From positions 1-46,153 of IMG/VR virus record IMGVR_UViG_3300024325_000001: a stretch of 46,153 nt of DNA, one strand, 5' to 3'. Under the pieces are notes generated by a model. The model had not been told where the DNA came from. It saw only the letters and a list, made by a program, of their open reading frames with translations, and did no database searches. Shown in pieces: positions 1,429 through 41,379 of this stretch. The first letter of the stretch is position 1; each line of letters starts with the position of its first letter. The DNA comes from a virus (Duplodnaviria > Caudoviricetes). The position numbers and the translations under genes are program-made.

Positions 1429-3030
1429 ATGAAACGACTTCTCGCGGTGCTTCTGTTCTGCCTGCTGCCTTCGCTGGCGCAGGCGGCGACATGCACGTCG
1501 TACCCTTTCACGCTGCAGAACAACACGACTGCGGATGCCACGCAGGTCATGTCCAACTTCAATACGGTGCGCAACTGCGTCGTCAACAACGCAGCTGGCA
1601 GTGGCGTCAACACCGATATCACGTCCATCCTTGGGCTCACGACGCCGCTCTCGCCTGCCCAGGGCGGCTCGTCTGTCTTTATTGGAGGCACGTCGACCGG
1701 CAGCGCCAACGCGCAGGTGGTGGCAGCGACCACGCCTGCCAATTTTTCTTTGACCTCCGGCTATCGGGTTACGTTCACGGTCGGCTTCACCAACAGCGGC
1801 GCCACGACGCTGAACATCAACTCGACCGGCGCCACGGCGGTCAATCGCGTCGGTAACGCCGGTCTCGAGGTGCTGACTGGCGGCGAGTTGGTGGCCGGCA
1901 ATATCGCGGAGGCGATCTACAACGGCTCGGTGTTGGTGCTGCTTACCAGCGACATGAGCGATATCGGGCAGCGCGTCAGCATAGGAGCGGCGGCTACTAC
2001 CGATCTCGGCACGGTGGCGACTCACAACGCGGCTATCACCGGCTCCGGCGCAGCTATCACCTCGTTCGGCTCTACGGCGGTCTCCACCAATCCGATCTAT
2101 CGCATCTCGTTCGCGGGCGCGAACACGCTGACCTACAACGCCAGCTCGCTGATTATTCCCGGCTCGGCCAATCTCACGACAGCCGCCAACGATACGGCCA
2201 CGGTCGAGTATCTGGGCAGTGGCAACTGGCAAGTCCTGAGCTACACCAGGGCGTCGGGCGCTCCGGTTATCCCGATCCTGCCGGTCCCTGCAGGCTTCAA
2301 GAACCTCTCGATAAAGGTCGCGACCAACACGACGGTCGCGGTCGCTGCCGATTTTGTCACGCTTTACGACGGCACCAACACGGTGACCGTCGCGCAGAGC
2401 TCGACCGTCGACCTTGGCTCGGCCGGTGCGGTCAACAAGCTCGACACCGGCACGATCGCCATTGATAGCTGGTACGCGATCTGGGTGATCTACAACGGCA
2501 CGACGGCTGGCGCCTTGGCGTCGCTCAGCGCCACGTCTCCGACGATGCCGGCGGGTTACACCTTCAAGGCGCGCGTGGGCTGGGTCCGCACCATCCATGC
2601 CACCGCGACGCTCTACGGGACATGGCAGTTCGGACGCATCGCGCAGTACGTGGTTGGGTTGGCGCAGACCACGCTTATCCCCAACATCGACAACGGGGTG
2701 AGAGGGACGTTCTCGCAGACGTCGCCGACGCTCACGTCGGTCTCGGTCGCCAACTTCGTGCCCTCTACGGCGTCCCGCATTATGGTGCTCGCTTCAAACG
2801 GCTGGGCGGCAGGAGGCACCGCGAACGTGCTGGTGGCGCCGAACACGTCCTACGGCGGGGCGAACAGGGGGCCGCTGGGCTCGGCCGGAAACGCCTACCC
2901 GCTATATCTCAATAACAACCTGTCGGTGGCGCAAAACGCGACTTTTGTGCTGGAGGGATCTACCATTGCCCTGGCGTCGGATGCGGGCGGCGGCGCCATC
3001 GGGTGCCTTGGCTGGGAGGATAACCTTTAA
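1429..3030 (+). CDS. Tail fibre-like protein with N-terminal Sec signal peptide (533 aa)
   Basis: ATG 1429 immediately after the upstream stop; MKRLLAVLLFCLLPSLAQA|ATC; Thr/Ser/Ala/Gly-rich modules typical of phage fibres (NSGATTLNIN, SLIIPGSANLTTAANDT, LDTGTIAIDSWYAIWVI). Confidence 0.75.
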   Translation: MKRLLAVLLFCLLPSLAQAATCTSYPFTLQNNTTADATQVMSNFNTVRNCVVNNAAGSGVNTDITSILGLTTPLSPAQGGSSVFIGGTSTGSANAQVVAATTPANFSLTSGYRVTFTVGFTNSGATTLNINSTGATAVNRVGNAGLEVLTGGELVAGNIAEAIYNGSVLVLLTSDMSDIGQRVSIGAAATTDLGTVATHNAAITGSGAAITSFGSTAVSTNPIYRISFAGANTLTYNASSLIIPGSANLTTAANDTATVEYLGSGNWQVLSYTRASGAPVIPILPVPAGFKNLSIKVATNTTVAVAADFVTLYDGTNTVTVAQSSTVDLGSAGAVNKLDTGTIAIDSWYAIWVIYNGTTAGALASLSATSPTMPAGYTFKARVGWVRTIHATATLYGTWQFGRIAQYVVGLAQTTLIPNIDNGVRGTFSQTSPTLTSVSVANFVPSTASRIMVLASNGWAAGGTANVLVAPNTSYGGANRGPLGSAGNAYPLYLNNNLSVAQNATFVLEGSTIALASDAGGGAIGCLGWEDNL

Positions 3031-3098: not shown

Positions 3099-3692
3099 AT
3101 GTTGAAGAAACTGCTCATGGGCACCGTGGCGCTGGTTTTCGCCGCTGGTCTCGCAACCGCTTCCAATCTTACCCTGCTCTCAGGCCCGCAGGATCCGAGC
3201 CAGATGCTGGCGACGATCAACAGCCTGATCCAGAGCATCAATTTTGGCGTCAACGGGCGGCTTACGGCGGTCGTCACGCCGGCCGGCAACACCACGACGG
3301 CCGAGCAGACGCTGGCCACCTACACGCTTCCGGCCAACCGCATCGCAGCCACTGGCGACGCGGTACGCATCCGCTGCTGGGGCACGTCGGCGGCGAACTC
3401 CGATCTCAAGACCCTCAAGATATACTTCGGCACCACCTCGTTCTCCTCGGCCACGGCGGGCGGCGCTCCGAACAACAAGGTGTTCGACGCCGAGATGTTC
3501 GTGGTTCGCTCCGGCGCGGCCACCCAGGATATCGTTGGCAGGATAGGCTTTGACGTGACCTCGCAGTCGCTTCAGACCAGCGTGGCCGGCACGGACGCCT
3601 GGACCGCCAATCAGACCATCAAATGCACCAGCACGTCGGCCGCATCCGGCGACCTGACCCTGCAGGGCATGTACGTCGAGCAGGTGAAATAA
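3099..3692 (+). CDS. Putative virion/decoration protein with Sec signal peptide
   Basis: AGGAG RBS; MLKKLLMGTVALVFAAGLATA|SN; Thr/Ser-rich beta protein with two Cys. Confidence 0.65.
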   Translation: MLKKLLMGTVALVFAAGLATASNLTLLSGPQDPSQMLATINSLIQSINFGVNGRLTAVVTPAGNTTTAEQTLATYTLPANRIAATGDAVRIRCWGTSAANSDLKTLKIYFGTTSFSSATAGGAPNNKVFDAEMFVVRSGAATQDIVGRIGFDVTSQSLQTSVAGTDAWTANQTIKCTSTSAASGDLTLQGMYVEQVK

Positions 3693-3850
3693 TGGCAAAA
3701 ATGGCGAACCGGAGTATGCTGAAGAAGGGGCTGAAAACCTCGATGCCAGCCGCTCCATCAGCAAAGGCCAAGGGTGCCAACATCAACAGCGATGCGATCC
3801 GCAAGGGTCCAGCCGCCACTCCCAAAAGCCTCGGCGGTCGTACCGCCTAG
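3692..3850 (+). CDS. Small basic protein (52 aa)
   Basis: TAATG coupling to the upstream gene; Lys/Ala-rich MAKMANRSMLKKG. Confidence 0.55.
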   Translation: MAKMANRSMLKKGLKTSMPAAPSAKAKGANINSDAIRKGPAATPKSLGGRTA

Positions 3851-22450: not shown

Positions 22451-22830
22451 TTGGCTTTCCTTACGTTGATGCGAATGTCACAGTTCAACGCCAGTAACCA
22501 CTTACGCAGATGCTTGAACCTAGGACATACTTGTCCGTTTTCCCACCGCGCTAGTTGAGTTTCGTACTCTCCGATCGACCTCGCTAATTCTTTTCTCGTT
22601 AGACCGCGAAACTCACGAATGCGTCGAAGCTCTATAAAAATTGGATCAATCTCGTGCTTGTGTTTCGTATTTGCGTTCCGATTACGTTTGATCTCTCGAA
22701 AGCGAGCGTAACGACCAAGTGAGGCGCGTCCACGACCGGGGAACGCTTTTTCCAGTTCTTCCCACGACGCCGCAGGCCATAACTGGCGAAGACGAGTTTG
22801 TTCCGACTGTGACCATAGTTTATAGTCCAC
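22447..22830 (-). CDS. XRE-family HTH regulator with N-terminal Myb/GcrA-like helix bundle
   Basis: WSQSEQTRLRQLW; LRRIREFRGLTRKELARSIG...LARWENG...P. Confidence 0.8.
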   Translation of the reverse strand: MDYKLWSQSEQTRLRQLWPAASWEELEKAFPGRGRASLGRYARFREIKRNRNANTKHKHEIDPIFIELRRIREFRGLTRKELARSIGEYETQLARWENGQVCPRFKHLRKWLLALNCDIRINVRKAK

Positions 22831-23533
22831 GGTTTTGTGCCTCTAGTGCCTGTTCAAACCGCTTAGCTTCATGCCAACTGTTGGCGTCACGCCCTTGCTT
22901 GCGAGCTGCAAACGACCAAGCCATACTATCCGCGCTTTCTAAGAGCTCTCGCACAAGCGAACTGCTGAGAGCCGTTGTCTTGAGCCCAAAGCCGTGCAAT
23001 TTCAGCCACGGCGCCTTGGTTTTAATTGCGCTTAATATCTGCTCAACCTGCGTTATGTCGCCGTTGCGCTTGCACACCGAGCCGACCCCCACATAACTGC
23101 TAAACACAAGCCTAGAGCCGTACTGATCCAAGTGCGCGAGGTAGTCCTTAAGCGCGTAACCCTGCAAAACAGGCATGAGATAGACGTTAATCAGGGGCTT
23201 CAAAGCATCGTATCGCTCGATCGTGAGGCGTTGGTGATCTTGAATTGTAAGGCCGGTCTTATCCAGCATGATCTTTTCGCACATATAATCCTGCGACACC
23301 GCGGCTTTTAAGCCGGGATTGATTGCGGCCAAGCGGTTCACCTCTTGCGCGTATACAGCTGGCGCATGGCGATAACCGCCAAACTGCTCAATCTCTCGAA
23401 ACGCGCCGCTGTCCATGATCCAGTCCGCGCAAGGCACGGGCTTTTTGCGCCCGCGCACCCTGTTGATGTTTATAAACGCATGGTCGAAGTGGGAGCTGTC
23501 GGCCGGCTGATGCAAGCCGACGTAGAACTTCAT
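22820..23533 (-). CDS. dpdA: DpdA-like 7-deazaguanine DNA transglycosylase (TGT fold)
   Basis: IMDSGAF, SQDYMCE, MPVLQG, VGVGSVCKR, LHGFG and ADSMAWS motifs. Confidence 0.85.
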   Translation of the reverse strand: MKFYVGLHQPADSSHFDHAFININRVRGRKKPVPCADWIMDSGAFREIEQFGGYRHAPAVYAQEVNRLAAINPGLKAAVSQDYMCEKIMLDKTGLTIQDHQRLTIERYDALKPLINVYLMPVLQGYALKDYLAHLDQYGSRLVFSSYVGVGSVCKRNGDITQVEQILSAIKTKAPWLKLHGFGLKTTALSSSLVRELLESADSMAWSFAARKQGRDANSWHEAKRFEQALEAQNRGL

Positions 23534-26225: not shown

Positions 26226-26524
26226 TTTTAGCCTCCATGCTGTAGCATTGTGCTACTCGTGTAGCAGTTTTTCTGCTACATTGCAACACAAAAGTGCGAC
26301 ATTTGTAGCAGGTTTGTGCTACTTTTGTAGCAGTTTTTTGTAGCATGTAGCACGTTGTTTTTGCTACTTTTGGGCTGGTTTGTAGCACATTTGGGCGTTC
26401 GGGGTGCGAGGTGCCAAAATAGTAAAAACTAAAAGCGTAGGAATATCAGTAACTACAGTCTAGTGGTAGTTTTGGATGGCAGGCACAGATAACAGAGAGA
26501 GTGTGTAGCACATTTGTGCTACAC
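26185..26524. repeat. Dense array of GTAGCA/TGCTAC hexamers in both orientations
   Basis: About 15 exact copies counted by eye, plus variants; perfect inverted repeat GTGTAGCACA-TT-TGTGCTACAC at 26503-26524. Confidence 0.9.
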
Positions 26525-28000: not shown

Positions 28001-28159
28001 ATGGCTAAATCTCATCCAGGTTTCAAGGCAGTGCAGTCCAAGATCGAGGGCGAAGGCTATTCGGCGAAGTCGGCCGGCGCCATTCTCGCCTCCAAGACGC
28101 GCGGCGCCTCTGCCAAGGCGAAGAAGGCCAATCCGCGCTTGAAGCGTGTCCGTGGCTGA
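28001..28159 (+). CDS. Small basic protein (52 aa, not in ORF track)
   Basis: AAGGAG RBS; MAKSHPGFKAVQSKIEGEGYSAKSAGAILASKTRGASAKAKKANPRLKRVRG. Confidence 0.75.
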   Translation: MAKSHPGFKAVQSKIEGEGYSAKSAGAILASKTRGASAKAKKANPRLKRVRG

Positions 28160-31014: not shown

Positions 31015-33198
31015 GTGGCCGACGACGAGCTCGACGACCTGACGCCAGACCCGGAGGAGGTCGACGAGGAGCCGCAGCCGCTTGGCCGCGACGACGAGCT
31101 CTCCACGAGAAAGTCAGTGGAGACGCAACTCCTTGATCTCTATCAGGAAGTGGAGAAGGGCTTCGTCAACCAGTACCAGCGTTCCAACGACCAGATGGAC
31201 TTCTGGGATATCTACAACTGCCAGCTCGGCGGCAAACAGTTCTACTCGGGTAATTCCAAGATATTTGTTCCGCTGGTGAAGGACGCGGTAGACGCGCGCA
31301 AGACCCGGTTCGCCAACCAGGTGTTTCCGCCTTCCGGCCGCTATGTCGACGCCATCAGCGAGGACGGCACTGAGCCGTTCGCCACCTTGTCGCTGCTCGA
31401 CCATTACGTTCGCAAAGCCAAGGTGCGGACGGAAGTGATGCCGGCGTTGCTGGTCAATGGCGACGTCGAGGGGCAGTACACCATCTGCGTATCGTGGTGC
31501 GAGGACGAGCGCTACGTCGTCGAGCGCGTCAAGGCGCCGGTCATGGCCGAGGGGCTGGACACCGGCGAGGAGACCGACGACCTGCGCGAGAGCGAGGTCA
31601 AGGGCGGTTATCCCCAGGTCGAGGTGATTGCCGACAGCGACCTGTGCATCCTGCCTGCCACCTGCGACAGCCCCTGCGAAGCGATCCGGGTCGGCGGCTC
31701 GGTTACGGTGCTGCGCCGCTGGAGCAAGGCGCAGATCAAGCAGATGGCGCGCGAAGGGTGCATCAGCAAGGCCGGCGCCAAGGCCTTGATCGAGGAGATG
31801 ACCGATGGCAAGTCGGGCCAACCTAAGACTGATAAAGCCGAGCACATGGTCGACGCCGCCGGCATCAAGAATGTGCGAGGTTCCAAGCACGCCCTCGTCT
31901 ACGAGACTTGGAGCGTCGTCACAATTCGTAAGGGAGAGCGGCGTCTTTGCCGTACTTATTTCGGGGGCAGTGATAACATTCTTTCTTGCAAACGTAATCC
32001 TCTTTGGTGTGATCTTCTTCCCATTCTGAGCGCGCCGGTGAAGAAAATACAGGGCTCGGTCAAGGGCCGCAGCCAGATCGAGCCGGTGGCGCCGATCCAG
32101 TACATGGCCAATGATGCCTGCAACGAAGCGATGGACAGCGCGGCCTATGCGCTGATGCCGATCGTGATGACCGATCCCAACAGCAACCCGCGGATAGGCA
32201 GCATGATCCTGTCGCTTGCTGCCATCTGGGAGACGTCGCCGAAGGACACCCAGTTCGCCAACTTTCCGCCGCTGTGGAAGGAGGGCATGGAGATCGTCAG
32301 CCAGGCCAAGGCGCAGATCAAGGAGAGCCTTGCGGTCAACTCGTCGATGGTGACGCAGCAAGGCACGTCCAAGCTCAATCAGGCCGAGATCGCGCAGGAG
32401 CAGCAGGTTGATCTCTTGACGACGGCTGACGCCGTGACCGTGCTCGAGCAGGCCATCCTGACGCCGATGCTGGCGCTGATGCTGGCGCTCGACCACCAGT
32501 ATCGCGACAAGGATATCATGGTGAAGCAGTACGGCCCGATGGGCACGCGGGCGCAGATGGAGTACGTCAAGCCGATCACCTTCGACAAGAAGTACGAGTT
32601 CATCTGGTTCGGCGTCGAGCAGGCGCGAAGTCAGCAGCAAATCCAGATGCAGATCGCCATGCTCAACGTGTTTCGCGGCATCCCGCCCGAGCAGTACGCG
32701 CCCTACACGCTCAACCTGCGGCCGCTCATGGTTCACATGGCCGGCAGCGCGTTCGGCCCGCAGCTCGCTCCGCTCACCTTCGAGGGACCGGAGGAGCAGA
32801 TGCCGGTCAGCGTCGATCAGGAGAACGAGATGCTGGAGAACGGGTTCGAGATCAAGACCCACGAGCTCGACGACGACAACGCCCATATCCAGTCGCACAT
32901 GCAGATGCTGCAGCAGGACCCGCAGTCCGACTACGCGAAGAAAATTCAGGCGCACATCTTCACCCATATTCAGCAGATGAACCGCAAGGCGATGATGGTC
33001 GGGATGGCGGGAGGTCCGATGGCGGGTGGGATGCCGTCCGGTCAGCCGGGCGTGCCGGGAGGCGCGGGACCAGGCGTTGCCGGTTCGCCGCGGCCAGGCG
33101 CTGTGCCTGCGCCGCCGAAGGGCGTGCAGCAGCCGCCGGGCGCAATCCACCAAGACCAGCTTCACGATCCCAGCCAGATGCCGAGGAGAACAGCATGA
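31015..33198 (+). CDS. Portal protein
   Basis: 727 aa after terL; helical with a Pro/Gly-rich C-tail; DDDNAHIQSH motif typical of podovirus-type portals. Confidence 0.85.
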   Translation: MADDELDDLTPDPEEVDEEPQPLGRDDELSTRKSVETQLLDLYQEVEKGFVNQYQRSNDQMDFWDIYNCQLGGKQFYSGNSKIFVPLVKDAVDARKTRFANQVFPPSGRYVDAISEDGTEPFATLSLLDHYVRKAKVRTEVMPALLVNGDVEGQYTICVSWCEDERYVVERVKAPVMAEGLDTGEETDDLRESEVKGGYPQVEVIADSDLCILPATCDSPCEAIRVGGSVTVLRRWSKAQIKQMAREGCISKAGAKALIEEMTDGKSGQPKTDKAEHMVDAAGIKNVRGSKHALVYETWSVVTIRKGERRLCRTYFGGSDNILSCKRNPLWCDLLPILSAPVKKIQGSVKGRSQIEPVAPIQYMANDACNEAMDSAAYALMPIVMTDPNSNPRIGSMILSLAAIWETSPKDTQFANFPPLWKEGMEIVSQAKAQIKESLAVNSSMVTQQGTSKLNQAEIAQEQQVDLLTTADAVTVLEQAILTPMLALMLALDHQYRDKDIMVKQYGPMGTRAQMEYVKPITFDKKYEFIWFGVEQARSQQQIQMQIAMLNVFRGIPPEQYAPYTLNLRPLMVHMAGSAFGPQLAPLTFEGPEEQMPVSVDQENEMLENGFEIKTHELDDDNAHIQSHMQMLQQDPQSDYAKKIQAHIFTHIQQMNRKAMMVGMAGGPMAGGMPSGQPGVPGGAGPGVAGSPRPGAVPAPPKGVQQPPGAIHQDQLHDPSQMPRRTA

Positions 33199-33401
33199 CA
33201 AACACGCAGGCCGTTATTATCGCATTTGGCATCGCGCTCGCAGGTGTTGGCTTTGCATGGGGGCAAGGAGCATCGGTTCGCTCGCCGGCCGTCGTGACCG
33301 GCTGCATTTTCTACACGACCCCGCCGACGCTTAGCGACGGCCAGCAGCAAAGTCTGACCTGCGACTCGACGGGCAAACTTCGCGTCACCACAACCTTCTA
33401 G
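33195..33401 (+). CDS. Small secreted protein with two Cys
   Basis: MTNTQAVIIAFGIALAGVGFAWG|Q; GCIFYTTPPTLSDGQQQSLTCDSTGKLRV. Confidence 0.65.
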   Translation: MTNTQAVIIAFGIALAGVGFAWGQGASVRSPAVVTGCIFYTTPPTLSDGQQQSLTCDSTGKLRVTTTF

Positions 33402-33409
33402 GAGCGATC

Positions 33410-33889
33410 ATGGACGACACATCAGGCATCAGGCTCTTGGCGGGACTGGTCGACATTCTCCGCGACAAGGACGGATCGGCAAAACTTCTGACCAAACTGC
33501 AGGCGCACGAGGATGCGGCGGCGGCATCGCTGAAGGAGGCCGGTGACAAGCAGGCCAAGGCGGCTGAGACTTTGGCTGAAGCACAGGCGCACCATGCCGA
33601 GAGTTCGCGGCTGCGCAACGAGATGCTGCATAAGCTCACACCGCGCGAGGAGGAGGTTGCCAAGGGTGCCCAGTTCGTTCAGAAGATGCGAAGCGACCTG
33701 GATGCTCGCGACAAGTCCATCACCACGCGCGAGACCGAGATGACGCGACGGGAGAATGCGGCGGCAGCGCGAGAGAACAAGATCGCCGAGGACGAGAAGG
33801 TGTTGAAGCTCGAGAAGGATCGCGTCGCGGCGCTGAAGGCGGCGTACCAGTCCAAGATTGACAACATCAAGAAGGCGGCGAGCGGATGA
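33410..33889 (+). CDS. Coiled-coil protein
   Basis: Ala/Glu/Lys/Arg heptads; AGGAG RBS. Confidence 0.65.
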   Translation: MDDTSGIRLLAGLVDILRDKDGSAKLLTKLQAHEDAAAASLKEAGDKQAKAAETLAEAQAHHAESSRLRNEMLHKLTPREEEVAKGAQFVQKMRSDLDARDKSITTRETEMTRRENAAAARENKIAEDEKVLKLEKDRVAALKAAYQSKIDNIKKAASG

Positions 33890-34200
33890 GCAACCGGCTT
33901 GCCCGCGGGCTTCAGCTTGCGTTCGGCACGCTTACGTCCTACGGCGGCGCGGGCACGGGAGCCTATGTCAAGATCATCCCGGCGAACGCCAACCGGCTTG
34001 GCTTCCTAATCGAGAACTACTCTGCGGTGTCGCTCAACACCAACGGCGACAATCTTCTGGTGCGGCTTGGCTTGACGGGTGCTGTTTGGGAAGTGATCCC
34101 CGGTGGTTGTTTTCCGCCGCCGCAACTCGAGGGCTGGATGGGCGACGTCTACGTGAACGCCACAGCGACGACGCAGTTCGCAGCAGCGGAGATGACGTGA
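33886..34200 (+). CDS. Small beta-rich putative virion protein
   Basis: IIPANANRLGFLIEN...IPGG pattern; ATGA overlap. Confidence 0.6.
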   Translation: MSNRLARGLQLAFGTLTSYGGAGTGAYVKIIPANANRLGFLIENYSAVSLNTNGDNLLVRLGLTGAVWEVIPGGCFPPPQLEGWMGDVYVNATATTQFAAAEMT

Positions 34201-36029
34201 TAAATCCAGGCGTCATCACGCAGGGCGCAGTGACGCCGGGCAACGCTGCGGTCTTCGTCAACCGCAACATGATCAAGGATGGTGGCGTTGCCCCTACGGT
34301 CGCTGGGCTGCTGGGCTGGATTGACGTTTATTCGTATCTGACGCCAGCACAGCAGGCTTCTGTATCTTTGTGGACTGGTACAGATGTAACAGCGGGGGTT
34401 ACGGCGGCTATCGCAGCAATTCCATCTACCGGGGGCGTTCTCTATTTTCGTCCTGGGAAATGGGTCACGACTGGGGGCTTTACTCTTGCTAATCCTACTT
34501 TTGTTATAGGATGCACGGGGGGTGACTACAGCAATACAGGTGCCGTTACCCAGATCGTTGATACTGTGACTAACAATGTACTTTTTAACGTTACGGCGAT
34601 TGCGGCGAAATTCGAGGATATTTCTCTCGTCTGTTCTGGAGTGGGAGCGGCGGGATCGACAGCGGTTAAGGTTGTCAATGCTAGTGCGCTGAATGTCTGC
34701 AACTTCGATCAAGTTACGTTCGACGGCTTCTATGATACTGTTGACGTGCAGACCGGATATGGCTGGCAGATTGATAATTGTGAAATTGTCCGTTCGGTCC
34801 ATTGGGCGTTGCGAATAAGAAACACTGTCAACGCCGATGCGGGCGGCTGGCATGTTACCAATTCGCAATTCGCTCCACTCGCCAACGCCGCAGCAGGTAT
34901 TCGCATTGAAAGCGGCGGCGGTGGAGTAATCGCCAACAACAAAATAGTTTCTGACAGCGGCCTCATTGTCGATGGTATCAGCATGGACGTGGGTGCTGCG
35001 CCCACTGTTCAACTTTCGATTTGCGACAACAACATCGAGAGTGTTTCGGGGAGCTGCATCAACATCGTTTCCGGCTGGCCACGAATATCCATCAACTCGA
35101 ATTTGCTCGACTGCTCGCTGGGGACTGGACCTGGCATTACTGCGTCCGCAGTTGTGCAACTTAACGTCCAAGCAAATACTTTGAACGGGCCGAGTGCGGG
35201 GACCGCGATTAGCTTGACGAGTTGTACGCAGCCACTTGTCGGCCCAAACAACATTAGAAACTTCACAGATAAAACGGCGTTTGTCGCCTGCACGTTGATT
35301 TTGGATATCGACGACGATCTCGTTCTTACCAACGTCGCCAACACTTTCACTGTAACACAGACGATTACACCAGCACTGGACACGCAGGCGCTAATCGTAT
35401 CTGGCTTCTCCGCAGATACGGCCGACACGCACTCGATCATCGACATATCCGGCACATGGAATGTCGGCGGTGGAAACAACGCTGGGGATGCGTTTAGACT
35501 AAACATTACAAATACCAGTAGCGCGGGCGCTTCAAACCTCCTTAATTTGTTGGTCGGTGGCGTCAGCTTTTTCAGCGTCAACCGGCTTGGCTTCATGCAA
35601 TGCGGCCAGATGGCCACCATCGGTGGTAACATCTTTGGCTACTCAATGGCCGCGTCGAATATCTACATCAAAGAGACGACCGGGACTGTTCCAACTATTT
35701 TAATGTGGGGAAACGGTGCAAACTTTGGTGCTATGGGCATCAACGCTGGAGAAGGCTTCTGGCTTGGCTCAAGTTCAAATGCAGTAGCGATTACAAACCA
35801 AGCGGTTTACTGGGACAGCTTTGCAAACGTGGCACTTGGACTTACGGGTGCTTTAGCAACTACAGCTACAGATGGAGATATGTATATCCCGACCTGTGCA
35901 GGGCCACCTACGGGCGTTCCTAGAGGCGTCACCGGCAAGGTTGCCGTGCGTTACGACACGACAAATAACAAACTCTACATTTATAACGGCGGCTGGAAGG
36001 GCGGCACGAACCCAGGAGTGTTTACCTAA
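34197..36029 (+). CDS. Tailspike with right-handed beta-helix (pectin-lyase-like)
   Basis: GTGA-coupled start; DVTAGVTAAIAA..GGVLYFRPGKW followed by Asn-ladder repeats. Confidence 0.8.
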   Translation: MINPGVITQGAVTPGNAAVFVNRNMIKDGGVAPTVAGLLGWIDVYSYLTPAQQASVSLWTGTDVTAGVTAAIAAIPSTGGVLYFRPGKWVTTGGFTLANPTFVIGCTGGDYSNTGAVTQIVDTVTNNVLFNVTAIAAKFEDISLVCSGVGAAGSTAVKVVNASALNVCNFDQVTFDGFYDTVDVQTGYGWQIDNCEIVRSVHWALRIRNTVNADAGGWHVTNSQFAPLANAAAGIRIESGGGGVIANNKIVSDSGLIVDGISMDVGAAPTVQLSICDNNIESVSGSCINIVSGWPRISINSNLLDCSLGTGPGITASAVVQLNVQANTLNGPSAGTAISLTSCTQPLVGPNNIRNFTDKTAFVACTLILDIDDDLVLTNVANTFTVTQTITPALDTQALIVSGFSADTADTHSIIDISGTWNVGGGNNAGDAFRLNITNTSSAGASNLLNLLVGGVSFFSVNRLGFMQCGQMATIGGNIFGYSMAASNIYIKETTGTVPTILMWGNGANFGAMGINAGEGFWLGSSSNAVAITNQAVYWDSFANVALGLTGALATTATDGDMYIPTCAGPPTGVPRGVTGKVAVRYDTTNNKLYIYNGGWKGGTNPGVFT

Positions 36030-36256
36030 TGGCAACGCTTACTATCACTATTGATCCTGGCACAGGTCCTGTGTCTGAGACGCTTACCTTCTCTGGGGCC
36101 GACGCTACGCGAATCATCAATGCATTCCGAAAGGATCATCCCAGCGGCACTGTGGCACAGCTTGTGGATTACTTTGCTATGATTATCAAGACCCAGATAT
36201 CTAAGATGGTTATCAGTGCCGAAGCTGTAACTCCTATTCCACCTGTAATGTCGTAA
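36029..36256 (+). CDS. Small protein after tailspike (chaperone/tip candidate)
   Basis: TAATG coupling. Confidence 0.55.
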   Translation: MATLTITIDPGTGPVSETLTFSGADATRIINAFRKDHPSGTVAQLVDYFAMIIKTQISKMVISAEAVTPIPPVMS

Positions 36257-36339
36257 GATGATGCTATGCTTCGCTGTTTGGTCTTTCGGTTTCGCGATCC
36301 TGCTGGAGATTGTCGTCAGAGCACCGGAGCTTGAATGGC

Positions 36340-37254
36340 ATGATTAGATTTGTTCTCGTCGCTCTCGCGCTGCTTCTGGCGTCGCCTGCATTTGCGCAAT
36401 CGTCGAAAGTCACGCTTGACGCTGAGATCGACACCAACTGGCCCGACAACACTTCCGGCGCAATCACGCCCGCGCTGCTTCGCAACACGGTCAAAGATAT
36501 TGTCGCGTCCTACGTCGATTGGCTGGTCTGCACCGCTCAAGGTGGCATCGTCTACTGGAACTCGACGGCAACGCCGACGTGTCTGCTGGCGGGGACGAGC
36601 GGGCAGTTTCTCAAGACACTGGGACCGGGAGCGAACCCGCTTTGGGCGACGCCTTCACTGCCCGCATCAAATCTTACGGTCTCCAGTAACAATGTCGTCA
36701 TCGGCAACAAGGCAGGCACCAATCAGCCGGCGCAGGAGCTGACGGCAACCTCGATCCTCGACTTCATCGGCACGACAGTCGGTCAAATTTTAAACCGCGG
36801 TGCCAGCATCTGGTCGGCCACGTCACAGCTTGTGCTCGGCGCTTCCGGTACGCTTGGCAATGTGACGATGGGCAACGCCACGTCGGGCACAATCACGGTG
36901 CAGCCAGTCGCGGGCGCACTGACTGTCGGCGACACGCTAAGCTTCCCATCTCTGACCAAGACGCTCACGGCAACGATCGCCAGCGGCGCCAAGGCACTCA
37001 ACACGACGCCGATCGCGTCGACCGCGTGCAACACGTCTGCGGCCGGAGCTGCCGGCGTCGTCTCGACCGACGCCATTGTGGCGGCGTTCAACGCGAGCAC
37101 TGCGGCGGTTGCCGGGTATATCCCAGTGACGGCGGGCGGCCTGTCCATCCGACTTTATCCCACCAATGGCACTGTCAATTTTGAAGTTTGCAATGGGACG
37201 GCTGCGACGATCACGCCGGGGGCGATCACGCTGAACTGGGCGGTGTATCGGTGA
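36340..37254 (+). CDS. Fibre-like Thr/Ser/Ala-rich protein with Sec signal peptide (304 aa)
   Basis: MIRFVLVALALLLASPAFA|QSS; WPDNTSGAITPALLR; GTSGQFLKTLGPGANPLW fibre repeat; four Cys. Confidence 0.72.
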   Translation: MIRFVLVALALLLASPAFAQSSKVTLDAEIDTNWPDNTSGAITPALLRNTVKDIVASYVDWLVCTAQGGIVYWNSTATPTCLLAGTSGQFLKTLGPGANPLWATPSLPASNLTVSSNNVVIGNKAGTNQPAQELTATSILDFIGTTVGQILNRGASIWSATSQLVLGASGTLGNVTMGNATSGTITVQPVAGALTVGDTLSFPSLTKTLTATIASGAKALNTTPIASTACNTSAAGAAGVVSTDAIVAAFNASTAAVAGYIPVTAGGLSIRLYPTNGTVNFEVCNGTAATITPGAITLNWAVYR

Positions 37255-38165
37255 AGCGCCCGCTGCTTGTTCTGCTGGGCTTGCTGCTCGCAAGCTCGGC
37301 CCTTCCGCAAAGCTTACCGTTCCCCGGTCCTGGCGGCATCGCCGGCTTTGCCTGCACCGGCGGGACGATCACCACCAATGGCACCAAGACGATCCACACC
37401 TTCACCGGCAGCAGCACGCTGACCTGCGCGGGTGGATCCAAGACCACGGCGTCGCTTCTGGTGGTCGCTGGCGGCGCTTCGGGCGGCGGCGGCACGGCAG
37501 GCGGCGGTACAGGTGGCGGCGGGGGCGCAGGCGGCGTTTGCGAGAACACCAACACATACACGCTCACCTCCACGAGCTACACGATCACGGTCGGCGCGGG
37601 CGGCGTCCATCCGACAGGCGCAAACGTCCGCGGCAACCCCGGCACGGACAGCGTTTTTGACGTCTCCGGCACGCCGGTTACGGCCAAGGGTGGTGGCGGG
37701 GGCGCGGCCAACACCAACACCACCGGCGCAGCCGGCGGCTCGTCGGGCGGCGGTGCTTTCAACGGCGGCGGATCGTCGGCGATCACGCAAGTCTCGCCAT
37801 CGGGCGGCGTCAACTGCTTCGGCAACATTGGCGGCACAGGCTCGACGGCGACCACGACGTCGCAGGCAGGCGGCGGTGGCGCAGGCGGTGTGGGCGCCAA
37901 CGGTGTCAACGGTGTGGGTGGCGGCAACGGCGGCGCACCGCGCGCATCCTCGATCACCGGCTCGGCAATCAACTATGCGGCCGGCGGCGGGGGATCGTCA
38001 GAGAGCTCGCCTGCGGGCAGCGGTGGCGATGCTTGCGCGGGAGCGGGCGAACGGCGCACTGTCAGCAACGCAACCAGCGCTACGGCAGCAGGATGCGGCG
38101 GCGGAGGCGGGTACGACAACGCGCCCGGCGACGGTTTCCGCGGCGTCGTGATCGTCTCCTACTGA
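37251..38165 (+). CDS. Glycine-rich domain (tail-associated) protein with Sec signal peptide (304 aa)
   Basis: GTGA-coupled; MKRPLLVLLGLLLASSA; TIHTFTGS, LVVAGGASGG, GGGGAGG, YTITVGAGG and GVVIVSY signatures; six Cys. Confidence 0.8.
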   Translation: MKRPLLVLLGLLLASSALPQSLPFPGPGGIAGFACTGGTITTNGTKTIHTFTGSSTLTCAGGSKTTASLLVVAGGASGGGGTAGGGTGGGGGAGGVCENTNTYTLTSTSYTITVGAGGVHPTGANVRGNPGTDSVFDVSGTPVTAKGGGGGAANTNTTGAAGGSSGGGAFNGGGSSAITQVSPSGGVNCFGNIGGTGSTATTTSQAGGGGAGGVGANGVNGVGGGNGGAPRASSITGSAINYAAGGGGSSESSPAGSGGDACAGAGERRTVSNATSATAAGCGGGGGYDNAPGDGFRGVVIVSY

Positions 38166-39361
38166 TGAAGTATCTCGCCTTCTTCGTTACGGTTTTGTTC
38201 GTTCAGGGCATCCCAGGACCGGCCACAACGCCTCGCTGGGCGCTCCTGATGCTGGTCATGCCTATCCTTTGGTATAGGCATCCTAACCGTTTGACGGTGG
38301 CCCACCTGCTGGGCGCTTGTTTTCTCGCGTGGGCAGCGTTCTCGCTAAGCTGGACCTTCAATTTCTACGACGGCTTGCGCGCGATGCTGCTGTTTGGCCT
38401 TTTGTCGCTGGTGTTTTGCGCCGCGCCGTCGTCACTTCGGTCCGTCTACGGCGCAATGGCGATTGGGCTCGCGGTCAACAGCGCGGTCTCCGTCGCCCAG
38501 GTTTACGGGTGGGACGTTTTGTCGCAGGCTGCGATCCCCGGAGGGCTGTTTTTCAATAAGAATTTTGCCGGCGAACTGGCAGCGATGGTGCTCGTCGGTG
38601 TGATCGCCTCGCGGCTATGGTGGGCGATCCCCGGTATCCTGCCAACGCTGTGGCTAAGCTATTGCCGCGGTGCATTTTTCGCTTTAGCAGTTCTTTCTAT
38701 CTGGTTGATATATAAGAAAAATCGCTTCATAGCGGTGGCGCTTGCCGGAGTAGGACTGGAGCTGATTGCCTATCTCGTTCTCAGGCATGACACCGGGCTT
38801 TGGACGCCTAGCTTTAACCAGCGGATCGACCTCTGGCTCGACGCCTGGGACGGCTCTACCTTTTGGGGGCATGGTCTTGGCTCGTTCTACACGACATTCC
38901 CCGAACACGCGACGCGGCTCGACTCGCTGCTGTTTCGGCCGAGCTCGGCGCACGCCGATCTGTTCAATCTGACCTATGAACTTGGTCCCGGCGTGCTTTT
39001 GGTGTTAGGTCTGTTACTGTACGCATGGCTTGCGCGGCCGCTGCGCGCCGAGCACTACGTTCTGATCGTGTTTTTGTCGGAGGGTCTCGTTGCTTTCCCG
39101 CTGTATATGCCTGCTACGTCGTTTCTCGCGGTTCTTGTTCTTGGTAGTCTTTGCCGCGATCGGCCTGGACTGCACAGTTCGCTCGCTTGGAGCCGAGCTC
39201 GAGTTTTATTGGGCCAAGCGCTCCGATACGGTTGGGCAAGCCCTGTTTCACCTGCATCGCGCCTCGATCATGTGGCCGCTGGACTACCCGATGCGGGCGG
39301 CTCCGGCGTACTTCTGGGTGGCGACACGGCTTTACGTGGCTCGGGAGTTCGCCATTCCTGA
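38165..39361 (+). CDS. O-antigen ligase/O-oligosaccharyltransferase-like (Wzy_C) polytopic membrane protein
   Basis: Many TM segments; GLFFNKN, SYCRGAF, RIDLW, FWGHGLGSF, AHADLFNLTYELG and FPLYMP motifs; TGATG coupling. Confidence 0.85.
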   Translation: MKYLAFFVTVLFVQGIPGPATTPRWALLMLVMPILWYRHPNRLTVAHLLGACFLAWAAFSLSWTFNFYDGLRAMLLFGLLSLVFCAAPSSLRSVYGAMAIGLAVNSAVSVAQVYGWDVLSQAAIPGGLFFNKNFAGELAAMVLVGVIASRLWWAIPGILPTLWLSYCRGAFFALAVLSIWLIYKKNRFIAVALAGVGLELIAYLVLRHDTGLWTPSFNQRIDLWLDAWDGSTFWGHGLGSFYTTFPEHATRLDSLLFRPSSAHADLFNLTYELGPGVLLVLGLLLYAWLARPLRAEHYVLIVFLSEGLVAFPLYMPATSFLAVLVLGSLCRDRPGLHSSLAWSRARVLLGQALRYGWASPVSPASRLDHVAAGLPDAGGSGVLLGGDTALRGSGVRHS

Positions 39362-39503
39362 TATCAAGGCTGCGCTTGTGCGCAACCCGAACGCCGCTGA
39401 TTTGTGGTACGCTTTGGCCGAATACGAGGAAGCTGGCGGCGAGGATGCGACGGAGGCCCGCAAGCATCTACGCGCACTTTGGATGAACTACGATCGGAGA
39501 TAA
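39090..39503 (+). CDS. Overprinted membrane-anchored TPR-like protein (+1 frame)
   Basis: GGAGG at 39079-83 before TTG 39090; basic plus hydrophobic N-terminus; IKAALVRNPNAADLWYALAEYE TPR-like motif; fills the gap up to the endolysin. Confidence 0.6.
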   Translation: MLSRCICLLRRFSRFLFLVVFAAIGLDCTVRSLGAELEFYWAKRSDTVGQALFHLHRASIMWPLDYPMRAAPAYFWVATRLYVAREFAIPDIKAALVRNPNAADLWYALAEYEEAGGEDATEARKHLRALWMNYDRR

Positions 39504-39505
39504 CG

Positions 39506-40021
39506 ATGAAGTGCCCAGATAATGCTCCCAAGTGGCTTCAGGCAGCGTGGAAAGAAATTGGCACGCACGAGGTAGGAAATAATGGCGGCCCTTCAGTTCA
39601 GCGCTACTGCAACCTTGCTCATTGCGGCGAACAAGGCCAGCCGTGGTGTGCAATTTTTGCCAATGCGATGCTGGAAAGCAGCGGCATTGCGGGAACGCGC
39701 TCGCCAGCATCGCAATCCTTTCGTCATGATACTGATTTTGTTCAGCTATCTGGACCTGCGTTGGGCGCTATCGCAGTCTTTTGGCGAACGTCGCGCGCAT
39801 CTGGTCTCGGGCACGTCGGTTTTTATTGCGGTGAGCGGAATGGTTTTGTGTGGACGCTAGGTGGGAATGAATCGGACATGGTGCAAATCGAGATGCTGGC
39901 AAAACAAGCAAGCACTTTCGGCCTCATTGGTTACTTCTGGCCAAAAGCGGTCAAACTACCAATTGTAGGGCCGATAATGGTTGCAGCTAATATTCCGAGC
40001 CATCAGGTGTCGGTGGTCTAG
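39506..40021 (+). CDS. Endolysin, TIGR02594/CHAP-like amidase
   Basis: PKWLQAAWKEIG, PWCAIFAN, GAIAVFWR, GHVGF and LGGNESD motifs. Confidence 0.85.
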   Translation: MKCPDNAPKWLQAAWKEIGTHEVGNNGGPSVQRYCNLAHCGEQGQPWCAIFANAMLESSGIAGTRSPASQSFRHDTDFVQLSGPALGAIAVFWRTSRASGLGHVGFYCGERNGFVWTLGGNESDMVQIEMLAKQASTFGLIGYFWPKAVKLPIVGPIMVAANIPSHQVSVV

Positions 40022-40074
40022 ATTGTGTCCACACGAGGACTATGATACAACCCGTTTAGCGGCAAGGGGATTTT

Positions 40075-40371
40075 ATGAACAACGCCCAATTTCTCAGTCT
40101 CCTTCGTACCCTCCTTCAGATCGCCGGGACTGCTGTCGTTGCTCACGGCACGCTGGGCATCAACGGCGCAATGTGGGAGCAAATCTCTGGTGCGATCATC
40201 ATGCTTGCTCCTATCATCTGGTCGATGTTTGCTCACACTGATACTGCTCAGCTCAAGGCCGTTGAGGCGATGCCCGACGTCAAGAAAATTGTTGTCGACA
40301 CGACGGCGCCCCCCGATGGAGCCGCAGCCGCGCTTGCTGATCCAACACGACCGAAAGTGGTGAGCCAATGA
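40075..40371 (+). CDS. Putative holin
   Basis: Two TM segments; directly follows the endolysin. Confidence 0.7.
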   Translation: MNNAQFLSLLRTLLQIAGTAVVAHGTLGINGAMWEQISGAIIMLAPIIWSMFAHTDTAQLKAVEAMPDVKKIVVDTTAPPDGAAAALADPTRPKVVSQ

Positions 40372-40712
40372 GACGTTTGATCCCCGTTCTACTGGCGTTT
40401 GCACTTGCGGGTTGCGCGAGCATCGCTAATCCGCTCACGTCGTCGCGTCTCGACACGATCAACGCCTCCTGGGGCGCGACGCTTGCGATCAGCGCCAACT
40501 ACCGCGATGCCTGCGCTCAGCGCTTGATCCCGCCGTCCTGCCGCCCGATCGTCGTCCGCATTCAGCAGGCTGCGATCCCGGTACAGGCGGCCGTACAGGC
40601 GGCCAACAGGGCTTCGGTCGGCGGCCAGCTAAACGCCGTCGCACTGGTCGAAAGCGCCAGCCAGATCATCAATGACTACAAGCTTCTCCAGATGCAATAT
40701 GGGATCAAGTGA
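40368..40712 (+). CDS. Lipoprotein (spanin-like)
   Basis: Lipobox LAGC after MRRLIPVLLAFA. Confidence 0.7.
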   Translation: MRRLIPVLLAFALAGCASIANPLTSSRLDTINASWGATLAISANYRDACAQRLIPPSCRPIVVRIQQAAIPVQAAVQAANRASVGGQLNAVALVESASQIINDYKLLQMQYGIK

Positions 40713-40960
40713 TGGACCCGTCAGCAATCGCCAGCATCGTTCTCACTGCGGTCTCAACTTTGATTAAGGTCGCTCCACAAGTCGTTCAAACCGTTAAGGA
40801 TTTCAAGCCTTACGCTGAGGCTTTGTACGGCGAGTTGACGGGGCAGGCTCCAAACGACGATCAGCGGGCGACGCTGGCGGCCGGTATCGACGCCCTATTC
40901 GCGCGGCTCGAGACACCTCTCCCTCCTGCGCAACCAGGTGACCCTGACTACGTTGCCTGA
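40709..40960 (+). CDS. Hypothetical lysis-cassette protein
   Basis: Amphipathic N-terminus; overlaps the upstream stop. Confidence 0.55.
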   Translation: MMDPSAIASIVLTAVSTLIKVAPQVVQTVKDFKPYAEALYGELTGQAPNDDQRATLAAGIDALFARLETPLPPAQPGDPDYVA

Positions 40961-40962
40961 GT

Positions 40963-41379
40963 ATGGCAAAGCGTGCGCGAATGAAAGCTCGGCATACCCA
41001 CTACGACGTGGATGCGACGATCACGCCTGAGACCAAGTTCAAGGTCTCTATGGTGCAGATGTTCAGCATTGCCGCAGGCATCTTCTTTGTGGCGATCGGC
41101 TACGCCTACCTCACCTACAACGTGGTGGATATCAAGGCTGTCCAGACTGATGCGCTAACCAAGACTGCAGCGGCCATCAAAGAGCAGGACGAGAAGCGCA
41201 ACACGCTCGGCAAGCAGTTCCTCGACAGCAACGAGAAGATCGCGGCTGCTGTGACCACGCTCGCCACGCAGATGGCGGTACAGCAGGAACGGCAGAAGTC
41301 GACCGACGAGAAGCTGGAGAAGGTTTTGACCCAGATCAGCTCTACTCTATCGCCACAGTCAGTCGGGCCTCGCCGATAA
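40963..41379 (+). CDS. TM + coiled-coil protein (i-spanin-like)
   Basis: FSIAAGIFFVAIGYAYL followed by a long coiled coil. Confidence 0.55.
   Translation: MAKRARMKARHTHYDVDATITPETKFKVSMVQMFSIAAGIFFVAIGYAYLTYNVVDIKAVQTDALTKTAAAIKEQDEKRNTLGKQFLDSNEKIAAAVTTLATQMAVQQERQKSTDEKLEKVLTQISSTLSPQSVGPRR

Follow-up and report, generated by a model that had tools for sequence, protein, structure and literature searches.

In the usual view, assembly of tailed phages takes place entirely in the cytoplasm, and the P22 tailspike attaches to particles late and spontaneously. Export of a virion protein is known from filamentous phage, where pIII passes through Sec, forms disulfides in the periplasm and joins the virion during extrusion, without lysis. 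Virions of mycobacteriophages are glycosylated by cytoplasmic glycosyltransferases, and the spikes of archaeal viruses by host AglB. To our knowledge, none of these cases combines a tailed phage with a periplasmic en-bloc transferase that it encodes itself. Here we describe the complete genome of an uncultured short-tailed phage, IMG/VR record IMGVR_UViG_3300024325_000001 (hereafter the window, meaning the whole stretch of 46,153 nucleotides, with a direct terminal repeat of 127 nt). Its late genes, named here by their first position, encode appendage-like proteins with predicted export leaders and a WaaL-fold, Wzy_C-like membrane transferase, 38165. Comparison across relatives indicates that this feature is real and widespread: the route of export and disulfide formation for fibres is strongly supported, and the predicted enzyme is real, linked to exported proteins and optional.

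The closest described enzyme is WaaL of Cupriavidus metallidurans (7TPG/7TPJ; PF04932), which 38165 resembles in fold (Z 18.6 over 318 residues), in its Arg/Arg/His residues and through its relatives, 26/32 of which match Wzy_C. It differs from WaaL in sequence (14-17% identity), in its place in a phage late operon, in having an overlapping partner gene with a transmembrane (TM) helix and TPR-like domain, and in its neighbours, which are exported proteins rather than lipopolysaccharide genes. With PglL, PglS, TfpO and TfpM its family shares a Wzy_C domain with a catalytic His. According to PMC9829042, TfpO, TfpM and PglS serve dedicated pilin acceptors in the periplasm, the catalytic His286 of TfpM is required, and PglL-type enzymes measure 550-600 aa; PMC12800693 describes a periplasmic C-terminal domain in PglS. 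The phage family differs from the general O-oligosaccharyltransferase PglL in that PglL_A and Wzy_C_2 domains were found neither in 32 family members nor in the window genome. It differs from both PglL and PglS in that most phages encode the C-terminal domain separately, in an overlapping gene. Lastly, 38165 resembles the Wzy_C gene products of Pseudomonas phage D3 and of VarioGold (VG_p25), being likewise a membrane protein that a phage encodes close to its lysis genes. VG_p25, too, sits beside genes with signal sequences; the phage is temperate, and VG_p25 and the late genes are on opposite strands (PMC9658991). Unlike a D3-type serotype-conversion moron, 38165 is coupled in a late operon and comes without an integrase.

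The preliminary description of this DNA had assigned Sec-type signal peptides to five late genes, 1429, 3099, 33195, 36340 and 37251. All five open reading frames (ORFs) are present at these positions. Leaders were called by a purpose-written rule-based predictor (basic N-region, hydrophobic core, small residues at -3/-1), whose false-positive rate was 7/450 early-strand genes. By this rule 1429, 3099, 36340 and 37251 bear leaders, whereas 33195 does not: its hydrophobic N-terminus lacks a basic residue, and only its counterparts in four relatives (L001, L005, L007 and L058) are called. Clade relatives were sampled via the capsid, blind to the enzyme (the best 80 of 376 loci). Not one of 369 core structural and packaging proteins of the clade was called (capsid, portal, nozzle, adaptor, scaffold, terminase, acetyltransferase and internal proteins, duplicates not removed). 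In the 1429 family 28/38 members carry a leader by rule and 6 more by eye, leaving 4 truly leaderless copies, two of them identical; in the 3099 family the counts are 20/22 by rule and 2 more by eye. Further fibre homologues were taken as the best 120 of 303, and 2 without the anchor motif were dropped. Of the remaining 118, 113 bear a leader (110 by rule, 3 by eye) and 5 are leaderless. The N-terminus of leaderless orthologues coincides with the predicted mature N-terminus, and in 3/3 cases checked the start of the leaderless fibre abuts the nozzle stop. Moreover, in the complete genomes G003, G011 and G016 all Ser/Thr-rich late ORFs of at least 180 aa except the nozzle bear leaders, and so no cytoplasmic fibre candidate is left there. 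These proteins match the pattern of Sec and signal peptidase I (SPase I) substrates by a rule with low false-positive rates, cleavage itself being a prediction. The predicted leaders are a property of the clade, confined to appendage genes, and leader-bearing fibres are nearly universal across it. Gln comes first in the predicted mature N-terminus of 53/105 leader-bearing fibres scored, and could cyclise to pyroglutamate.

The cysteine pattern follows the leaders. Mature proteins were also said to be Cys-paired, and the counts are even in 3099 (2), 33195 (2), 36340 (4) and 37251 (6), but 1429 has 3 and is not fully paired. More generally, 146/158 Cys-bearing leader proteins have an even Cys count vs 229/553 leaderless ones, and with at least 2 Cys the counts are 146/153 and 229/370 (de-duplicated, with membrane proteins and short lipoproteins excluded). 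In the anchor domain of the fibre, 118/118 homologues carry either 0 or 2 Cys, never 1, and the anchor pair is absent from leaderless copies. Leader-bearing fibres have a median of 6 Cys vs 0-3 in the five leaderless ones (p=0.003). The simplest reading is that disulfides would form in the periplasm. Thus the earlier claim that the appendages are exported and disulfide-bonded is well borne out by comparison, given the leaderless core proteins and the Cys parity, and it is very probable that the appendage proteins are exported and fold with disulfides.

Are the exported proteins virion parts? Gene 1429 (1429..3030, + strand) encodes a tail fibre of 533 aa directly after the tail nozzle gene, with a predicted leader at 1-19 and an N-terminal Cys22/Cys50 pair. 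A short motif connects it to two solved virion fibres, 7Z47 (E 1.6e-6) and 8VBX (3.7e-5), it matches PHROG tail families, and many of its homologues carry a Collar domain; it also has segments in common with Rhizobium and Bradyrhizobium phage fibres. It therefore has both the position and the homology to virion fibres expected of a podovirus tail fibre. The solved fibres 7Z47 and 8VBX gp47 are made in the cytoplasm as far as we know, and the related fibre of phage Nobby has no leader and 1 Cys. The short spike-tip protein 3099 (3099..3692, +; 197 aa, predicted leader 1-21, Cys93/Cys176) is modelled as an N-terminal helix and a beta-sandwich (pLDDT 80.6). Among the matches to the model are the spike domains of KP34 (E 1.4e-7, TMq 0.64) and of phi15, two phages that share the beta-sandwich; the best rows are in Clandestinovirus, and the fold matches in the Protein Data Bank (PDB) are generic beta-sandwiches (Z<=9.2). 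A homotrimer is predicted with a score of 0.87 vs 0.00 for the best control, with at least 70% contact agreement between runs and pLDDT of at least 83; the trimer mark was reached by 20/30 solved homo-pairs and 1/23 single chains. An Atlas search with 3099 returned unnamed viral clusters, with only a sub-0.9 lead to T4 gp9/10. Tail-fibre or glycine-rich tail motifs had been ascribed to three of the exported proteins. This is solid for 1429 and true of 37251, which matches Gly_rich_2 (1e-13) and phrog_863 (5e-5), but weak for 36340, whose tail matches are short (E 5e-3 or worse). On this basis we consider it likely that exported fibres attach to virions.

The enzyme 38165 (38165..39361, +) has a folded core from residue 1 to about 335; the last 60 residues are unconserved and overlap the next gene. 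Its model shows the WaaL-type multi-helix membrane fold and superposes on WaaL 7TPJ with an rmsd of 4.1 over the 318 aligned residues, at 14% identity; the next-best fold group is RodA/FtsW (Z 10.2-10.8). Foldseek against 7TPG gave E 2.2e-3 and TM 0.49. Among 190 homologues R168 is conserved in 169, R220 in 189 and H263 in 188, and a GxGxG motif is near-invariant. The AHAD motif reported earlier around the His is indeed present (A262-H263-A264-D265). Equivalence of Arg/Arg/GxGxG/His to the WaaL residues is by motif position, not by residue-level superposition. Calling 38165 a Wzy_C-type enzyme needs a qualification: the window protein has no Pfam match, PF04932 included, but the Wzy_C matches of its relatives (E<=1, best 1e-11) and the fold support the call. 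By its model, then, 38165 is a WaaL-fold transferase. The family is a divergent, mostly viral branch, with 1,140 clusters at E<=1e-30, viral wherever context was seen. NCBIfam holds no fitting family model, a PDB sequence search with the enzyme profile gave nothing useful, and tblastn with two family members against INPHARED found none in cultured phages. A search for cellular relatives with a single pattern, which is a poor test, gave one weak match among 54 candidates.

Beyond residue ~335 of the enzyme, conservation shifts to the +1 frame. There the product of an overlapping gene, 39090 (39090..39503, +; 137 aa), combines a basic N-region with a single membrane helix and a TPR-like helical domain, an assignment that rests on weak matches. 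It has a TTG start preceded 6 nt upstream by a GGAGG ribosome-binding site (39079..39083, +). The +1 frame is open for at least 70 codons in 35/37 loci, the +2 frame in 5/37. No +1-frame stop was observed in the overlap vs 21.5 +/- 3.6 expected, and 0/500 shuffles were as low (up to 37 loci). The contrast between the +1 and +2 frames disposes of an assembly error. The start lies at the same codon in 19/37 loci, 10 of them with a ribosome-binding site. We also rejected a programmed +1 frameshift placed where the last helix ends: stops are already missing 3 codons before the FPL motif, which fits an earlier start of the gene's own. Since an own start at the same codon is found in only 19/37 loci, a frameshift further upstream may occur. 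In relative L045 the domain is fused in frame to the enzyme (E 7e-4). A TM and TPR-like domain thus follows the Wzy_C core as an overlapping gene, resembling the C-terminal domain of PglL/PglS in place if not necessarily by descent. We read 39090 as a putative periplasmic partner with a translation of its own, whose location matches that of the PglS C-terminal domain. Such a partner favours a protein acceptor, without proof. The overlapping gene also corrects the statement that the enzyme is chained directly before the lysis genes, as 39090 lies between.

The enzyme is linked by position to genes for exported proteins in many unrelated phages. Of the 54 viral loci in our linkage set, 47 had an enzyme gene called, and removal of duplicates left 42. 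A leader is present on the gene immediately upstream of the enzyme in 23/40 non-redundant loci vs 10/233 genes at least 8 places away; within-locus shuffles gave 5.8 expected and at most 14 in 20,000. The 58 leader-bearing neighbours of the enzyme fall into 39 clusters, and enzyme-bearing phages into at least 5 capsid families, so the linkage is not one inherited block. Within the window's clade the enzyme occurs in three positions, and in G023 it stands beside a 1429-like fibre and a small leader-bearing neighbour. It was present in 10/50 records searched. Near the lysis genes of two enzyme-bearing phages lie leader-bearing genes (L006:12680-13417; L192:12939-13685 in G014) whose products, by a sequence motif, resemble alphaproteobacterial outer-membrane porins.

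These data suggest the following explanation. Late transcription would yield appendage precursors, namely the tail fibre, the spike tip and three other appendage-like proteins. Sec would export them, signal peptidase I would cut, Dsb enzymes would oxidise and trimers would fold; this part, from export to trimer folding, we hold with high confidence. Opening of the inner membrane by the holin would then bring cytoplasm-built particles together with the fibres, either while the outer membrane still encloses them or once it has broken, and docking at lysis is probable. Meanwhile, 38165 and its TPR-like partner may transfer a host undecaprenyl-pyrophosphate (Und-PP) glycan to some exported proteins. 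Pfam and PHROG scans recognised no glycan synthesis genes in the phage, and the donor glycan would therefore be the host's. Where a phage lacks the enzyme, its exported proteins would either go without modification or rely on an enzyme of the host. Whether the exported phage proteins are glycosylated, with protein rather than lipid as acceptor, could fall either way, and the explanation as a whole, export route plus linked glycan transfer by 38165 and 39090, is in our judgement evenly poised. The broadest form of the idea is a periplasmic branch of morphogenesis in a large group of tailed phages, with fibres docking at lysis and coated in glycan where the two-gene transferase is present. We put this forward tentatively and with slightly more doubt than belief.

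Several observations weigh against this explanation. Only 3/51 leader-bearing enzyme neighbours match a PHROG tail or decoration family, and virion membership is thus unsupported for most of them. The cultured phages BcepC6B and Bcep781 retain leaderless fibres beside a leader-bearing one. The leader calls come from our own rule, and the A-x-A tally is partly circular. The largest spike-like gene of the window, 34197, is leaderless and the relative G022 has no leader gene at all, implying that export is dispensable. The enzyme is present in 6/17 complete clade genomes (4/14 among those picked by capsid only), leader-bearing genes occur in 10/11 complete genomes without it, and enzyme-bearing genomes have only slightly more leader genes (median 5 vs 3, p=0.04, among related genomes). 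Strict co-occurrence is therefore rejected, exported fibres being nearly universal. The suggestion that exported appendages and enzyme form one system does not stand as a fixed arrangement, as the fibres occur without the enzyme clade-wide and in cultured phages. Rather, the predicted enzyme is an optional add-on to an apparently clade-wide export route, and the link is one-way. No acceptor and no acceptor signature was identified among the candidates. Ser/Thr richness, offered earlier as a sign of glycosylation, fails its control: the five leaderless fibres have 21.8-25.9% Ser/Thr vs a median of 24.1%, so exported and leaderless fibres are alike, and fibres with the enzyme (23.0%) hardly differ from those without (21.6%, p=0.13). 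A C-terminal acceptor as in TfpO/TfpM was likewise rejected; unlike those systems, no pilin is adjacent, and just 5/58 leader-bearing neighbours end in Ser/Thr. Finally, Wzy_C-fold enzymes include lipid A ligases and polymerases.

In one alternative, exported fibres do become part of the virion, while the target of the enzyme is the surface of the host, where it would ligate or polymerise O-antigen. By altering or masking the receptor at a late stage of infection, it would keep progeny from being lost on debris or shut out other phages. WaaL is the nearest solved structure, the enzyme is optional, an acceptor signature was not found, and phage Wzy_C precedents exist in D3 serotype conversion and VG_p25 (PMC9658991). 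However, VG_p25 is encoded opposite to the late genes of a temperate phage, while 38165 is start-stop coupled in a late operon and a tyrosine or serine recombinase (integrase) was found in 0/8 enzyme-bearing clade genomes. A lipid acceptor would also leave unexplained the adjacency to 39 clusters of exported proteins and the conserved TPR-like partner, and we consider this alternative unlikely. The enzyme might instead move a glycan that is not of O-antigen type, or mainly drain the lipid carrier pool, or retain exported proteins at the membrane until lysis. The divergence of this mostly viral family, which no NCBIfam model fits and which matches WaaL at 14% identity, leaves some room for such chemistry. 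Yet the two Arg, the GxGxG motif and the His hardly vary, which is what use of a pyrophosphate-lipid donor and catalysis would require, and the corresponding His is essential in TfpM (PMC9829042), making this quite improbable.

Two further alternatives concern the exported proteins themselves. Instead of being virion parts, they may act at lysis by binding receptors, as free decoys or as proteins of the cell surface, with the enzyme glycosylating or anchoring them. In keeping with this, 46/51 leader-bearing enzyme neighbours have no PHROG match and 2 more match only unknown families, leaderless fibre candidates are kept in the window, BcepC6B and Bcep781, and particles assemble in the cytoplasm. 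But 1429 sits at the canonical fibre position, where leaderless orthologues with the same anchor domain also sit, and G003, G011 and G016 lack any leaderless fibre candidate. Decoys would suit the small cassette proteins better than 1429 or 3099, and as a general account we find them improbable. It is more improbable still, and in our view very much so, that the N-terminal segments are uncleaved membrane tethers holding fibres at the inner membrane during assembly. That the leader prediction rests on our own rule leaves space for this idea. Against it, even Cys counts track leaders, the anchor Cys pair is all-or-none and missing in leaderless copies, leaderless orthologues begin at the predicted cut, and a basic N-region before a hydrophobic stretch would place the remainder outside.

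Cultured phages, too, have fibres with predicted leaders and even mature Cys counts, namely Bcep781 gp49 (14), BcepC6B gp19 (4) and the Bradyrhizobium phage ppBdUSDA122-1 (WAX24263, 18; WAX24264, 6). Leader-bearing, even-Cys fibre genes of cultured phages lie at L082:7635-11716 (ppBdUSDA122-1), L220:20959-22032 and L221:13609-15687. No Wzy_C-like gene was found in Bcep781, BcepC6B or ppBdUSDA122-1. The GenBank record of Bcep781 annotates a 'possible tail fiber; possible signal peptide domain'. Our literature search, with supplements and most subscription papers (the original Bcep781 paper included) outside its scope, turned up no account of tail fibres being exported, nor of an oligosaccharyltransferase encoded by a phage. 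The accessible parts of PMC13001222, PMC12656738 and PMC10975493 do not mention exported fibres, although the last describes a tail-hydrolase-like esterase with a signal peptide, and PMC10127595 lacks relevant terms. If true, maturation of receptor-binding fibres in the periplasm, with joining at lysis, would lengthen the scheme of phage assembly by one step and might be why such fibres are difficult to annotate or express; this export claim is testable in ppBdUSDA122-1, BcepC6B and Bcep781. If the glycan transfer is also true, it would be the first phage-encoded periplasmic system for protein O-glycosylation, with virions bearing a sugar imprint of their last host. A phage-owned en-bloc transferase would then supply glycoengineering with a new, compact source of enzymes and open a way to virions imprinted by their host.

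The late cassette upstream of the enzyme begins with 33195 (33195..33401, +), a 68-aa protein with Cys37/Cys56. Two leaderless genes follow (33410..34200, +), for a 159-aa charged helical protein (33410-33889) and a 104-aa protein (33886-34200). Next comes 34197 (34197..36029, +), which the preliminary description overlooked despite its being the largest appendage-like gene of the interval: a spike-like protein of 610 aa with 11 Cys and no match in Pfam, PHROG or the PDB, PDB sequence search included. The gene in the same slot of L001 has a leader and a Cys pair in a shared N-terminal motif, and the window copy lacks both. Its lower GC content (0.51-0.54) suggests a recent swap. The slot alternates between leader-bearing and leaderless genes in close relatives (window 34197-36029; L001:3550-4800; L004:8330-9991). 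A leaderless 75-aa protein, conserved in L001, follows the spike-like gene (36029..36256, +). The two proteins of 304 aa each are 36340 (36340..37254, +), appendage-like with a predicted leader at 1-19, and the glycine-rich 37251 (37251..38165, +), whose GTG start overlaps the previous stop. The start-stop overlaps reported earlier are confirmed as GTGA at 37251-37254 and TGATG at 38163-38167. In the fully leaderless G022 (L059:17508-22086) the nozzle gene is split and its C-terminal part is repeated at the ends of two fibre-like genes.

In the wider genome, the + strand carries a late arm of podovirus type (terminase 28759, portal 31015, scaffold 41602, capsid 42420, adaptor 45013). The nozzle gene spans the window end, and internal proteins lie downstream of 4326. 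The lysis cassette (39506..41379, +) holds a TIGR02594-family endolysin-like gene, a Pam3 gp28-type holin, a lipobox protein and spanin-like genes; the lipobox protein indicates a host with two membranes. At L001:8415-8897 an unrelated endolysin-like gene occupies the slot of window 39506-40021, though the neighbours are 94-96% identical. The - strand encodes DNA polymerase, helicase, primase and DpdA (22820-23533; PF23859, 2e-41). DpdA suggests 7-deazaguanine modification of the phage DNA, and genes for precursor synthesis were not recognised. A search of the window genome for recombinases found no integrase, and a scan for promoters and terminators gave chance level only. Between the divergent arms, an AT-richer gap (26251-26332) holds several short inverted repeats on TGCTAC/GTAGCA, possibly operators or an origin. 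Tiny Lys/Ala-rich basic proteins (28001-28159; 3692-3850) recur clade-wide, before the terminase and after the 3099-family gene.

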